Positions 4,626-31,650 of a stretch of DNA of 64,000 bases are shown here, piece by piece (the stretch's first letter is position 1; every line of letters starts with the position of its first letter). The position numbers and the translations under genes are program-made. The notes below the pieces were generated by a model. It made no database searches. It was not told the origin of the DNA and saw only the letters and a list, made by a program, of their open reading frames with translations. The DNA comes from Escherichia virus TH40: the sequence record MT446411.1. One strand, written 5' to 3'.

Positions 4626-4931
4626 TTAGATTTTATTTTCCTGCACACCATAATACAGTTCATCAGATACAATATTCAGGATGTGGCGAACATATTCATC
4701 ATGGTATTGACAGTCAAAATCAAATGCAACAGTAGTTTCCGCTTCACGAGTGAATTTAACTTGCACATTCAGGTGATTAGTAACGTGAGTTAATTTATCA
4801 GTAAAGAACTCTTTTGCTACCGCCTGCTGGACTTGCACTTTGAACTTGGTGTTGCGAATCATATTTTCAGCAGATGCGAAATTACCAGTTTTATCAAAGT
4901 CAACAAGCGCCAGGTTGATGATGAATTTCAT
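4626..4931 (-). CDS. hypothetical protein (101 aa)
   Basis: Reverse ORF with GGAGAA RBS and early-type promoter at 4971-5000. Confidence 0.5.
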   Translation of the reverse strand: MKFIINLALVDFDKTGNFASAENMIRNTKFKVQVQQAVAKEFFTDKLTHVTNHLNVQVKFTREAETTVAFDFDCQYHDEYVRHILNIVSDELYYGVQENKI

Positions 4932-4970
4932 TTTATTCTCCAGTTTTATTTGGTAACTCAGTATGGAATC

Positions 4971-5000
4971 ATTATGCCTTAAAGCAGGGGGCTTGTATAC
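4971..5000 (-). promoter_or_regulatory. early promoter (-35 GTATAC, -10 CATAAT) with conserved leader CCATACTGAGTTACC
   Basis: Reverse-strand GTATAC-N18-CATAAT; leader motif shared with 5486, 6003 and 43339 promoters. Confidence 0.5.
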
Positions 5001-5011
5001 CCCCTTTTGAA

Positions 5012-5443
5012 TTAAATTTCAAATTCTTTGCGGAAGTTGGAAGCATAAGATTGAACTGATGCTTTGTTGAATCCAAACTCACGCACAATCATATCAATAA
5101 CAGCTCTGCGAGCAGCACCATTAGACATATTAACAGTTTTGAACATATCATAGCATAAATCTTTGTTGCTCATACCGGAGCGTTTAGGTGCCTTACGCTC
5201 AGCTTTTGGTTCAGCTTTAGGAGTAGGTTTAACCTGTCCATCATTCAGACCTTTAAAAATTTTACCCGCCAGAGTTGCCAGTTTAGCAGCTTCGCCACGA
5301 GTGATACCAAATACTGCCGGGTTAAATGAAATACCTTCAGCTGTTAAACGTTTGAAGAACATACGCGCTGCGGATTGCGCTTCAGCTTCAGAAGAGTTGT
5401 TTAATGCCAGTTTAACGTACTTAATCAGTTTTGAAGTTTTCAT
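5012..5443 (-). CDS. hypothetical protein, paralogue A (C-terminal AARRAxID...VQSYASNFRK domain)
   Basis: Reverse ORF, start at internal ATG 5443; C-terminal 35 aa conserved with 5527..5952 product; promoter 5486-5514. Confidence 0.5.
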   Translation of the reverse strand: MKTSKLIKYVKLALNNSSEAEAQSAARMFFKRLTAEGISFNPAVFGITRGEAAKLATLAGKIFKGLNDGQVKPTPKAEPKAERKAPKRSGMSNKDLCYDMFKTVNMSNGAARRAVIDMIVREFGFNKASVQSYASNFRKEFEI

Positions 5444-26056: not shown

Positions 26057-27606
26057 TGACAACGACTAACACGCTAAAACACATTAGCGATAAATCCGAA
26101 TATAAAACATTCGACCCGACGGGAACAGCTTTCCCGTCGACTGTTACCAACGTACAAGAGGCTTTAGGGTCTCTTAATAAAATTGCGTTAGATGGATATA
26201 TCCCAGCCTCATCCGAAACGACCGCAGGACTCATCAGGCTAGCCACCACACAAGAAGTTATTGATGGTATTAGTCCAGACTCTGCAGTTACTCCAGCGAC
26301 CTTAAAAGCTCGTTTAGACATTCCTACGCAAGCTACAGAAACTTATGTAGGTATTACCCGTTATGCAACCAATGCCGAAGCAATTGCCGGGACAGTAACC
26401 GATGCGGCTATTGTTCCATCTTCATTAAAAGCAACAATTGATGATGTTTTTACTGTTCGTGTTGGTACCGAAAATAATTTGGGTGTTCTTCGTATTAGTA
26501 CCGAGGATGCAGCTTTAGCTGGCACAGATGACACAACCGCTATGTCTCCGTTGAAAGTTGCTCTGGCAATTGGCAAAGCAACAGCGGCGCTTCCAACTTA
26601 TTCAACTGCCACACAAACTGTTTCTGGTTTAGTACGAATTGCTACAAATGCTGAAGTGCAAGCAGGAACCCTGGGTGACGGTGTAGCAATTTCTCCAGCA
26701 GGTTTAAATGCTCGTACAGCAACACAAGACCGCGCTGGGATTATTCGTCTTGGTAATCAGTCAGAGATTAATAACAGTGCTGATGGTGTTGCGGTAACTG
26801 GCGCAACTCTTAATGGTCGTGGAGCCACAACCGATAATCGCGGCGTCGTTAGATTAACTACTCAGGCTGGGGTTGCTCCTGGTGGTGATGGTGCCGGTGC
26901 ACTGGCTTGGAATGCTGATGTAATCAACACTCGTGGTGGTCAACGAATTAATGGAAGTCTTTTTTTAGATTATATTTCCACCGGCAATTTTGATTCCAAT
27001 ACAGCTCATATGGGCGGTCAATTACTTTCTACACAGCGTTATGCTTCTGAACGGGTTCCAGTTGGAACGGTGATGATGTTCGCAGGTGATAGTGCTCCTC
27101 CTGGCTGGATTATGTGTCACGGCGGCACCGTTAATGGTGACCAATTCCCTGACTATCGAAATACTGTTGGAACTCGTTTCGGTGGCGATTGGACCAACGT
27201 CGGTATTCCTGATATGCGTGGTTTGTTTGTTCGTGGTGCTGGTACCGGTGGACATATTCTGAATAACCGCGGTCAAGATGGTTATGGCAAAGACCGTTTG
27301 GGTGTTGGTTGTGATGGTTCATGGGTCGGTGGTGTACAAGCTCAGCAAATGTCATATCATAAACACGCGGGTGGTTGGGGTGAATACCAACGTAACGAAG
27401 CTCCATTTGGTGCATCAGTTTATCAAGGTTATCTAGGTACAAGAAAATATGCAGACTGGGATAACGCTTCATATTTTACTAACGATGGATTTGAACTCGG
27501 TGGCGGCAGAGATGCTTTAGGTACGTTAAACCGTGAAGGTCTTATTGGTTATGAAACTCGCCCATGGAATATGTCTTTAAACTATATTATCAAAATTCAT
27601 TACTAA
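26056..27606 (+). CDS. 12: gp12 short tail fibre
   Basis: 516 aa; repetitive Ala/Thr/Gly-rich fibre repeats; synteny. Confidence 0.85.
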   Translation: MTTTNTLKHISDKSEYKTFDPTGTAFPSTVTNVQEALGSLNKIALDGYIPASSETTAGLIRLATTQEVIDGISPDSAVTPATLKARLDIPTQATETYVGITRYATNAEAIAGTVTDAAIVPSSLKATIDDVFTVRVGTENNLGVLRISTEDAALAGTDDTTAMSPLKVALAIGKATAALPTYSTATQTVSGLVRIATNAEVQAGTLGDGVAISPAGLNARTATQDRAGIIRLGNQSEINNSADGVAVTGATLNGRGATTDNRGVVRLTTQAGVAPGGDGAGALAWNADVINTRGGQRINGSLFLDYISTGNFDSNTAHMGGQLLSTQRYASERVPVGTVMMFAGDSAPPGWIMCHGGTVNGDQFPDYRNTVGTRFGGDWTNVGIPDMRGLFVRGAGTGGHILNNRGQDGYGKDRLGVGCDGSWVGGVQAQQMSYHKHAGGWGEYQRNEAPFGASVYQGYLGTRKYADWDNASYFTNDGFELGGGRDALGTLNREGLIGYETRPWNMSLNYIIKIHY

Positions 27607-27614
27607 GGACCAAA

Positions 27615-29240
27615 ATGATTAATAAACTCAGTCTCAAAGAACTGCCGTATAGCATCGGTATTCCAGACGAAGGTCAACAGAGAATTCGTTGGATACAAAA
27701 CGGCGATTGTATGACTGCGGCCAGTACCAAATATGGTCATGATGGTAATTTGAACGCCGCTGCAGTTGGCGTTCAAACAAACGTAGATACACTCGACGAC
27801 AACTCAAATGCATCTAAAGAAAAAATAAACGAAATTATTGATAACGTCAATAATATTCAGGAAGCTTTGAATATAACAACTAACACGGAAGTTGTTAAAC
27901 AAATTGAAAAAAACCGTACAGATATTCTTGACCTTGATGAACGTCAATTTAATACCGAATTGTTATCAAGCGAAACATCTGAAGACCTTAAAAAGTTAAA
28001 AGAAGATGTTGGTGTTTATGACCCGTTAACCGATTCATATTATCGCACAGTTCGTAATGACCTCGTATGGATTAAAAATGAATTAGGCCAGTATGTTGAC
28101 CAAGATATAAATGGTCTCCAGGTTATCGGCAATCCGTCAAGAGGCATGAAACGTCGCATCATCGATAACAGTTCGGCTATTGTTGCCCATGGAGTTCGTA
28201 TTAAGACTCTTGAGGATAATTACCATGATTCTGATGTTGGTTCTCTTAACGTAAAAGTAATTAAAATTCGCGAAGAATTGGGTGAGTCGACTTTAGCAGT
28301 AGGTAAACCAGCTGTATTTGTTCGACTGAATACTCTTGACGACAAAGTAGTCGAAATTGACGAAGATATTGCCAATATTCAAGAAGATATCGGTTTTGGC
28401 ACCGGGCTTGCAATTACAACTCGCGTTGAAAATCTTGGTGGACGTGTTTCGGTCAATGAAACAGATATTGCGAATATCAAACCAAGACTCACTAAGGTTG
28501 AAGCTGATATCGGCACCGCTCTGGAACCATTAACAATTAATGGTCGAATCAGTGCTTTGCGTTCGGATGTTAATGGCTTACAGGTTGTTGTTGGCCAGGA
28601 TTCAAGCTCTGGTTTACGCGGAACCACTGCATGGCTTTCTCAGAGAATCGGTACAGAGCAATCTCCGGAGCCAAACACTATCACGTATAAGTTGAATGCG
28701 ACCACTACACTGGCTAACGAAACTGCATCAGGCCTTCAGGATGTACAGGCCGAAATCGGTACAAATAACACTGGTATGAAAGGCTCTATTTTGACTTTAA
28801 CTAGCCAGATGAATGGTACAAACCCTAACGGTGCTACCGTGGCTGAACGTGGTGTTCTTCCGGTTGTAATTAACTTGGATATGCTGATGGCGTCCAAGCT
28901 GAACGACGCACCATTGGACAATAAGTTATATGGTCGCAAGCAAGGAAACTGGGCTGAAATTATCGATACCAAAACCGAGATTGATGCAATTAAACTCGAT
29001 ACTGCAAAAATTGCACCATTAACCACTCGCGTGACAACCCTTGAAGGTACAGTAACTCCGCTCCCTGGTCGCCTGGATGTGGCCGAGGCGAAGATAACTA
29101 CTTTAGAAGGTAAAGTATCAGCCTTAGAAACAGAGCTCGCCAAAAGGCCTCCTGTCGCTCCTGCAGCTGATGGTCTCCCTTATGTGCTCGTTGATAATGC
29201 ATGGGTTCTTTTGTCTACATTCGTGACTGTTGGACCATAA
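27615..29240 (+). CDS. wac: fibritin (whisker/neck fibre) with C-terminal foldon-like motif
   Basis: Coiled-coil; SRIRWIQNG N-terminus and C-terminal ...GLPYVLVDNAWVLLSTFV resembling T4 foldon ...YVRKDGEWVLLSTFL. Confidence 0.8.
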   Translation: MINKLSLKELPYSIGIPDEGQQRIRWIQNGDCMTAASTKYGHDGNLNAAAVGVQTNVDTLDDNSNASKEKINEIIDNVNNIQEALNITTNTEVVKQIEKNRTDILDLDERQFNTELLSSETSEDLKKLKEDVGVYDPLTDSYYRTVRNDLVWIKNELGQYVDQDINGLQVIGNPSRGMKRRIIDNSSAIVAHGVRIKTLEDNYHDSDVGSLNVKVIKIREELGESTLAVGKPAVFVRLNTLDDKVVEIDEDIANIQEDIGFGTGLAITTRVENLGGRVSVNETDIANIKPRLTKVEADIGTALEPLTINGRISALRSDVNGLQVVVGQDSSSGLRGTTAWLSQRIGTEQSPEPNTITYKLNATTTLANETASGLQDVQAEIGTNNTGMKGSILTLTSQMNGTNPNGATVAERGVLPVVINLDMLMASKLNDAPLDNKLYGRKQGNWAEIIDTKTEIDAIKLDTAKIAPLTTRVTTLEGTVTPLPGRLDVAEAKITTLEGKVSALETELAKRPPVAPAADGLPYVLVDNAWVLLSTFVTVGP

Positions 29241-29265: not shown

Positions 29266-29273
29266 TATAAATA
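29266..29273 (+). promoter_or_regulatory. late promoter TATAAATA (gene 13)
   Basis: Exact consensus directly after terminator hairpin. Confidence 0.6.
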
Positions 29274-29291: not shown

Positions 29292-30230
29292 ATGGCAACT
29301 GAATCATACAACCCGAAACAATTAAAAGATGCAATCCTTCGACGTCTTGGTGCTCCAATTACGAATATCGAAGTTACGACCGAACAGGTCTATGATTGCA
29401 TCCAGCGTGCATTAGAATTATATGGTGAATATCATTATAATGGTTATAACAAAGGTTATCAGGCTTTTTATATCGGTCATGATGACGTTTCACAGCAGAA
29501 ATTTCGCGATGGCGTTTTCGATTTAAAAGGCCGTAATATTTTTGCAGTAACGCAGATTATTCGTACTAACGTCGGTTCATTAACTTCGATGGATGGTCAA
29601 GCTACATATCCATGGTTCACAGATTTTGTTCTAGGACTGGCCGGGATTAACGGTGGAATGGGTAGCTCATGTAACAGCTTTGGTCCAAATGCTTTTGGTG
29701 CAGACCTTGGTTATTTTACACAGCTTATGCAATATCGTTCAATGATGCAAGACCTGATGGTTCCGCTTCCGGATTACTGGTATAATGACGATACTGAACA
29801 ACTTAAAATTATGGGTAACTTCCGACAGGGAGATGTGATTGTAATTGAAGTTTATACCAAATCGTATAACGGCGTGGATTCAATGGTAGGCAATACAGCT
29901 GGATATGGTTTTGCTTCGGCCGATTGTGATAATCCGTGGAATGCTGGCGCACAGTGGGATAACCCGGCGCGCAGAATAAGCGGCATGAGAGCAGGTGAGG
30001 ACCTTGGACTTCAAGATGGCGCATACAACAACCGTTGGGTGAAAGACTATGCCACGGCGCTCGTTAAGGAAGTTAACGGCAACGTATTGGCTAAACACCA
30101 GGGGATGATGATGCCAGGTGGTACCACGGTTGATGGTGTTCGTTTAATTGAAGAAGCTCGTATGGAAAAAGAACGTCTTCGTGAGGAACTTGACCTGCTG
30201 GATGCACCGGCTGGAATACTAATTGGGTGA
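29292..30230 (+). CDS. 13: gp13 neck protein
   Basis: 312 aa vs T4 309; late promoter 29266-29273. Confidence 0.85.
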
Positions 30231-30233
30231 TTA

Positions 30234-30869
30234 ATGACTACTTACTATAGACTTTATGTATCAACATTTGAAACATCTAATGGGATAATGGTATATGGCG
30301 GTAAACGCCATTCACATTATGAAGATTCTAAAGCGGATAGTTATTTCGGTTCTGGTACTATTGTCAAGCGAGCTAAACAAAAATACGGAAGGAAATGTTT
30401 AGTCGACATTACATGGTCTAAACCTTTTGAATCGCCTGCCCTATTAAAAGAAGCCGAAGCCTTACTAGTCAGTGAGCTTTTAGAAAGTTTCGATAATTGT
30501 GCAAATTTACATCCAACAGGGGGAGGCGGACCAGAAGGTTATAGTTGTCCAGAAGATTCCCCTGCCTTTGGTAAAAAGAGAACAGCAGAATCAAGAAAAC
30601 GAATGTCAGACGCAGCAAAACAAAGGGAATGGTCAGAAGAAGGATTAAAACGTCGTAAAGAATCAACAGCTCGAATGTGGATTGATTTTAAGGACAGACA
30701 TCCAGATTTTTCTGATGATAAAAATCCGGCCGCGCGTAAAATTATTACCGGCGACCTAGAATTTTGTACCGGAAGAAAATGTGCAGAATATTATTCGATA
30801 ACACCGGCGACGGTCATTTACAGATGTAAAAGTACAGCCGAAAAATGGAAATTATGGAATTATGCGTAA
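30234..30869 (+). CDS. putative free-standing homing endonuclease (GIY-YIG-like N-terminus, NUMOD3-like motif)
   Basis: Extra gene between 13 and 14 (not present in T4); N-terminal YRLYV-x10-MVYGGKR; [18 protein letters not shown] resembles NUMOD3 repeat. Confidence 0.5.
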
Positions 30870-31650
30870 TTCTTATGATGCAAGCTTATTCGCTCGGCTC
30901 GAAGATGGAACCGGGTATGACAATACAAACTCGTCAGAGATACTCAACCAATATGTAAACTTTATGCATCATGAAAATACCCAGACTTTAGCAGATGCTA
31001 TTGTTGCTGAAAGTATTCAGATGCGCGGAATGTCTCTCTATTATATCCCAAGACAATTCGTTAAACCGGATTTATTATTCGGTGAAGACCTCCAGAGTAA
31101 ATTTGATAAAGCATGGAAATTTGCTGGATATCTGGATACGTTCGATGCATATCAGGGTGATGGTTCTATCTTTAGTAAATTCGGTATGACTGTGAACGAT
31201 GAAATTACAATATCGATTAACCCTAATCTGTTTAAACACCAATGTAACGGAACTGAACCTATCGCCGGGGATTTGATTTATTTCCCTCTTGATAACAGCC
31301 TGTTCGAAATTACATGGGTGCAACCTTATGACCCATTCTATCAGGTAGGTCAAAATGCTATCCGTAAAATCACCGCGAGCAAATACATTTACTCCGGGGA
31401 AGAACTTAAACCTGAATTGCAACGGAATGAAGGTATTAATATTTCAGAATTCAGCGAGCTCGATTTACAACCAATCCACAATATTGATGGCCTTACAGAT
31501 ATCAGCGATATCCCTTATGCTGAATCCAATGAGATTAACGCAGAAGCAGCTGAATATGTTAAACCATATTTTGTGCAGAATGGTCGTGGACTTGAGGCTC
31601 CACCTAAGGCAAAACAGGATAGCTTTGACGATAGTTTCTTTGATGAATAA
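30862..31650 (+). CDS. 14: gp14 neck protein
   Basis: 262 aa vs T4 256; synteny. Confidence 0.85.

Follow-up and report, generated by a model that had tools for sequence, protein, structure and literature searches.

A Seg-type homing endonuclease gene, probably mobile, between neck genes 13 and 14 of Escherichia virus TH40

Results

We analyzed a 64,000-nt stretch of Escherichia virus TH40 (record MT446411.1; hereafter the window), in which an ATG-started ORF of 211 aa occupies 30234..30869 (+) between neck genes 13 and 14. An earlier note, drawn from the letters alone, had described an ORF inserted at this position, and profile matches confirm both neighbors: gene 13 (29292..30230, +), encoding a neck / head-tail adaptor protein, matches PHROG head-tail adaptor Ad2 at E 4e-42, and gene 14 (30862..31650, +), encoding a neck / head closure protein, matches Pfam T4_neck-protein at E 1e-101. 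Downstream of gene 14 lie gene 15 and then the terminase genes. The note had also held that the two neck genes are adjacent in T4, with which their T4 coordinates (93624-94553 for gene 13, 94555-95325 for gene 14) agree. The additional ORF is annotated here as a free-standing homing endonuclease gene; it matches PHROG_314 'homing endonuclease' at E 1.8e-29, and tblastn against GenBank phages recovers intact homologs from 66 phage records, including the 'segC' protein of Shigella phage SP18 (ADO19516). Across the whole ORF, dN/dS between the window allele and that of phage VR26 is 0.047 at dS 0.37, which places the protein under strong purifying selection. On this sequence evidence, the extra ORF is not a chance ORF.

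At the 5' end of the insert, junction alignment places the gene 13 stop codon TGA (30228-30230) inside a Shine-Dalgarno-like GGGTGA, 3 nt before the endonuclease ATG (30225..30236, +), an arrangement that suggests translational coupling from gene 13 to the endonuclease. At the 3' end, the last endonuclease codons overlap the gene 14 start, as the earlier note had seen, by the 8 nt ATGCGTAA (30862..30869, +), and the gene 14 ATG is made of the Tyr codon of the C-terminal W-N-Y motif and the next base. The empty site reads GGGC-TAATG-GCTACTTATGAC; there the stop codon of gene 13 and the start codon of gene 14 overlap, and MATYD is the N-terminus of gp14. The endonucleases of VR26 and vB_EcoM_RZ (RZ) begin MATYY on this old gene 14 ATG, and the window copy begins MTTYY; since the MATY start is kept (MATYY in VR26 and RZ), the left junction falls after gene 14 codon 4. 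At the right junction, homology to the empty site resumes at CTTATGA, where gp14 begins MRNSYD instead of the native MATYD. Read from these alignments, the element has captured the translation start of gene 14 and supplied a replacement start.

The nearest T4-type late promoter motif able to drive a 13-endonuclease-14 transcript, TATAAATA, lies upstream of gene 13 (29266..29273, +). A promoter or terminator belonging to the endonuclease gene itself was rejected, there being no late-promoter motif within the insert, sigma-70-like matches only near chance level in the region and no terminator found in the region; RNA structure masking the start site was also rejected (z = -1.05). The endonuclease gene is probably expressed as a cassette without its own promoter, from the late transcript of gene 13 and with translational coupling to both neighbors. 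Across the whole window the late-promoter motif occurs 23 times against 4.9 expected. Up to ~13.4 kb the matches lie on the minus strand, and from 22.7 kb onward most lie on the plus strand, a pattern that fits the gene orientation of a T4-like structural region.

The N-terminal half is predicted to form a Seg-type GIY-YIG catalytic domain (residues ~4-100; 30243..30533, +), with Y8 for GIY, Y21 and G23 for YIG, and R25, E75 and N91. The 'GIY' and 'YIG' tyrosines are normally about 10-13 residues apart and accompanied by a conserved glycine, a pattern that this protein shows. The strings from which the earlier note had argued are present, YRLYV at residues 5-9, MVYGGKR at residues 19-25 and the quoted C-terminal-half motif at residues 112-129. 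By BLASTP, the N-terminal ~95-125 residues match T4 SegC (E 4e-10, 30% identity), SegE (E 6e-8) and SegD (E 2e-7). An exhaustive profile search gave 7156 relatives at E<=1e-3, and residue conservation was scored on an alignment of 50 of these, in which Y8 (RLY), Y21 and G23 (VYGG), Y37, G39, S40, G41 and E75 are invariant (100%) and D35, K50, Y51, G52 and N91 (98%) nearly so. An AlphaFold2 model built from the family alignment is confident (mean pLDDT 92) and contains the three-stranded sheet flanked by helices that characterizes the GIY-YIG fold (beta-beta-alpha-beta-alpha core). Alignment of the family by hhalign with the single I-TevI sequence, itself verified against PDB chains, is weak (E 0.003, probability 10%) but in register, pairing Y21 with Y17, G23 with G19, and the catalytic metal-binding Glu and Asn, E75 and N91, with I-TevI E75 and N90.

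Several searches gave no significant match for this domain: the Pfam GIY-YIG models PF01541 and PF19835 gave no match to the ORF at E<=1, NCBIfam TIGR01453 scored 17.9 bits, below its cut-off of 56, phmmer of the single ORF sequence against the PDB found nothing (I-TevI was reached by the family profile alone), and Foldseek with the full-length model found no GIY-YIG structures. Of the profiles that the earlier note had proposed to search, the GIY-YIG models are thus silent on the ORF itself, and in the family PF19835 (SegE_GIY-YIG) matches 5 of the 50 aligned relatives (best E 5.2e-7). Because pairwise, family-level and structural evidence concur, we do not take the Pfam and NCBIfam silence as refutation; the T4 Seg BLASTP matches, the conserved residues, the fold and PHROG_314 all support the note's assignment of the protein as a GIY-YIG homing endonuclease.

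That note had also named the catalytic Arg and Glu as residues whose loss on alignment would count against it; the Glu is present (E75), and the equivalent of Arg27 is missing. By alignment, the ORF offers no equivalent of I-TevI Arg27 or of the helix that bears it: hhalign sets the non-conserved H28 opposite R27, and in the AlphaFold2 model residues 28-41 form a loop carrying DxYxGSG, the helix being absent. Position 25 is always basic among the 50 relatives (Arg in 27, His in 22, Lys in 1) and is Arg in the window protein. BLASTP alignments likewise place no Arg in the corresponding stretch of T4 SegC, SegD and SegE, yet a review table counts SegC and SegE among the active endonucleases, and we therefore read the absence of Arg27 as a trait of the Seg subfamily and not as inactivity.

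The C-terminal half holds a NUMOD3-like motif below the Pfam threshold (residues 109-125; 30558..30608, +), followed by a second basic helix in the model (residues 135-151). For the NUMOD3 module suggested by the earlier note, Pfam NUMOD3 (PF07460) matches 11 of the 50 relatives (best E 2.3e-22), and support is weak for the window protein, which reaches 16.2 bits (E 0.01) against a cut-off of 20.4, residues 109-125 covering model positions 21-37 alone. Clearer than NUMOD3, and missed in that note, is a putative I-TevI-type helix-turn-helix DNA-binding domain at residues ~155-211 (30696..30866, +), homologous to I-TevI residues ~185-245. The close-family profile matches PDB entry 1i3j in this domain at E 2.5e-5, homologs score 21-26 bits on PF20987 (I-TevI_DNA-bd), and 1i3j is the top Foldseek match (probability 0.99). 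No zinc finger is found in the linker, where CxxC pairs are absent. With its catalytic domain, basic linker and helix-turn-helix, the window protein thus has the same architecture as I-TevI.

By tblastn, the protein is 100% identical, without any difference, in Shigella phage SP18, Escherichia phage pEC-M719-6WT.2 and Yersinia phage vB_YenM_P8, 99.5% identical in vB_EcoM_RZ and 96.2% identical in VR26, all five being Gaprivervirus within Tevenvirinae. Homologs of 48-59% identity occupy the 13/14 junction in Tequatrovirus F2, Krischvirus G5211, Slopekvirus phT4A and Klebsiella phage Prick1_ER44 (whose record has no genus assignment), and the same junction holds most of the other tblastn matches to the endonuclease. 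Throughout the four genera examined (window, F2, G5211, phT4A), the gene 14 ATG arises from the TAT Tyr codon of the C-terminal W-x-Y motif of the endonuclease together with the next G. The Krischvirus and Slopekvirus endonucleases have their own spacer and Shine-Dalgarno at the 5' end, not the MATY start. We take the 13/14-junction endonucleases to be a site-specialized lineage.

The protein belongs to a well-known kind and was already annotated as a homing endonuclease: the identical protein is so labeled in SP18, and same-junction homologs are annotated in dozens of genomes. The SP18 copy (GQ981382), from a genome whose analysis appeared in 2010, is labeled 'segC: homing endonuclease' with the note 'similar to SegC of phage Phi1', so its name comes from annotation transfer. 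No paper on this protein, or on an endonuclease lying between genes 13 and 14, turned up in literature searches. SP18 gp14 is annotated from an internal ATG (record 4731-5417; 687 bp, 228 aa), and the full gp14 ORF that overlaps the endonuclease stop is 262 aa in the window, pEC-M719, RZ and YenP8; the start given for SP18 gene 14 is probably wrong by 34 codons. The 'putative endonuclease' of VR26 (KP007362, 2085-2666; 193 aa) is also annotated from an internal ATG, and the deposited protein therefore lacks its first 18 residues, including the GIY tyrosine; its true start is the ATG that overlaps the stop codon of gene 13, giving an ORF of 211 aa (MATYYRLY...).

Comparison of the 13/14 junction across T4-like phages, which the earlier note had recommended, separates filled from empty alleles among close relatives at a fixed site: megablast with the 13-14 region recovered the insert in 8 records, and about 24 Gaprivervirus records aligned in two pieces with the insert missing. 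All six copies of the endonuclease gene are intact. Carrier-specific tracts border the insert on both sides. Upstream, the 3' end of gene 13 (30210..30231, +) differs from empty-site phages by 9 substitutions and a 4-nt indel, a cluster that is fixed in carriers if VR26 is excluded. Downstream, gene 14 codons 6-30 (30879..30951, +), a candidate altered target region, hold 12 sites at which every carrier differs from every empty-site phage, and fixed differences of this kind are confined to this tract.

The window and SP18 differ at 3 positions in 882 bp (30186-31067) versus 71 in the 844 bp immediately upstream (Fisher p 3.5e-19), and such near-identical cassettes sit in backbones that are 6-8% diverged. 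The closest backbone relative of the window is TH22, an empty-site phage, from which it differs at 14 positions in the 73 bp beside the insert versus about 1.8% further downstream (p 5e-10). A homing cassette whose flanks were co-converted, and are probably resistant to cleavage, would be expected to leave such a footprint. VR26 is a carrier, yet the 3' end of its gene 13 (30210-30231) is the empty-site version; because this flank and the dS of 0.37 set it apart, two allele lineages of the element, of VR26 type and SP18 type, occur in one genus. Elsewhere in gene 13 (29864-29889), 7-8 clustered substitutions split the window and TH22 from YenP8, SP18 and RZ; they have the look of a small patch of recombination with no connection to the endonuclease cassette. 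The wac / fibritin gene (27564-29240) is strongly mosaic, especially at 28200-28700, with about 95% identity to TH22, pEC-M719 and YenP8 and 45-58% to SP18, VR7, VR20, VR26 and MN01; the genes beside it are 92-99% identical.

Discussion

The window protein shares with T4 SegC, SegD and SegE the N-terminal pattern Y..YxGx(H/R)...DxYxGSG...KYG...E...N at 26-31% identity, and like theirs its gene is free-standing and not intron-borne. A review describes T4 segC, segF and segG as promoter-less cassettes in a host operon that overlap neighboring ORFs, and the window gene is alike in this. The T4 insertion sites are unlike 13/14, segC lying between 5.1 and 5.3, segD between 23 and 24, and segE between inh and uvsW. 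Orthology with T4 segC, as the SP18 label would imply, was rejected given the different locus and the length of T4 SegC, which at 140 aa, against 211 aa here, cannot carry the C-terminal helix-turn-helix. I-TevI of the T4 td intron (PDB 1ln0/1mk0, 1i3j/1t2t) shares the GIY-YIG domain, long linker and C-terminal helix-turn-helix, and its two domains are the top structural matches of the window protein's domains; it differs in being intron-encoded, in having a zinc finger in its linker and in carrying the R27 helix where the window protein has the DxYxGSG loop. The closest counterparts, SP18 segC, VR26, MX01, F2, G5211, phT4A and Klebsiella phages (48-100% identity), lie at this junction too and likewise overlap the start of gene 14.

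We consider it highly probable that the insert is a Seg-type free-standing homing endonuclease gene, combining a GIY-YIG domain, a NUMOD3-like linker and an I-TevI-type helix-turn-helix, that would home into empty 13/14 junctions. This reading draws on the identity of the domains, the conservation of catalytic residues, the presence or absence of the gene among close relatives, its cassette-like transfer together with flanking tracts, and purifying selection. The promoter-less gene would be carried and expressed on the late 13-14 transcript, and the basic NUMOD3-like linker would tether the nuclease domain to the helix-turn-helix domain. During mixed infection, the carrier's protein would bind the empty-junction DNA of a related phage and cut it near the gene 13/14 boundary; recombinational repair of this cut, with the carrier genome as template, would then copy in the endonuclease gene with short flanks, whose substitutions probably protect the carrier from self-cleavage.

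Were the gene instead a decayed or domesticated remnant, having kept DNA binding and lost cutting, it could be held in place by the gene 14 start codon within its 3' end, since making the gene 14 ATG from an endonuclease Tyr codon, as in all four genera examined, renders deletion costly; the missing Arg27 equivalent and the silent Pfam GIY-YIG models would fit such decay. We judge this very improbable, because 50 relatives show little or no variation at the two catalytic Tyr, the Glu and the Asn, the low dN/dS covers the whole ORF, and near-identical cassettes in diverged backbones argue for recent spread, while T4 SegC and SegE also lack the Arg in the aligned stretch and are nevertheless listed as active.

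An active endonuclease might alternatively owe its cassette pattern to ordinary recombination among co-infecting T4-like phages; T4 SegD is described in the literature as a Seg-type enzyme that cuts DNA yet does not home its own gene, and T4-like genomes are highly mosaic, as in wac, which is 57% identical to SP18 and 95% to other relatives. This too is very improbable in our estimation, as the shared tract is centered exactly on the insert and the substitutions specific to carriers crowd into the adjoining ~25 bp on one side and ~75 bp on the other, the expected signature of break-initiated co-conversion and target-site immunity.

More tentatively, this lineage of endonucleases may by now be structurally fixed in the neck operon: having taken gene 14's ribosome-binding site and first four codons (MATY), it would provide, through the Tyr codon of its functionally constrained W-x-Y motif, the sole start of the essential gene 14 in at least four genera, a possibility that we hold to be less likely than not. 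If true, gene 14 translation would depend on translation of a selfish gene, and the element would be hard to lose, in a relationship that is addiction-like rather than simple parasitism. Of minor note, and perhaps worth a short follow-up, are the start-codon capture and the conserved donation of a start to gene 14; as a discovery the locus carries little weight. It offers a natural example of probable Seg-type homing, with empty and filled alleles, two lineages, sharp flank tracts and, through the insertion, a rewired start for an essential structural gene. The 13/14 junction would thus be a convenient, uncharacterized system for mapping Seg target sites and co-conversion, and homing at this site would explain local mosaicism in the neck genes of therapy phages.
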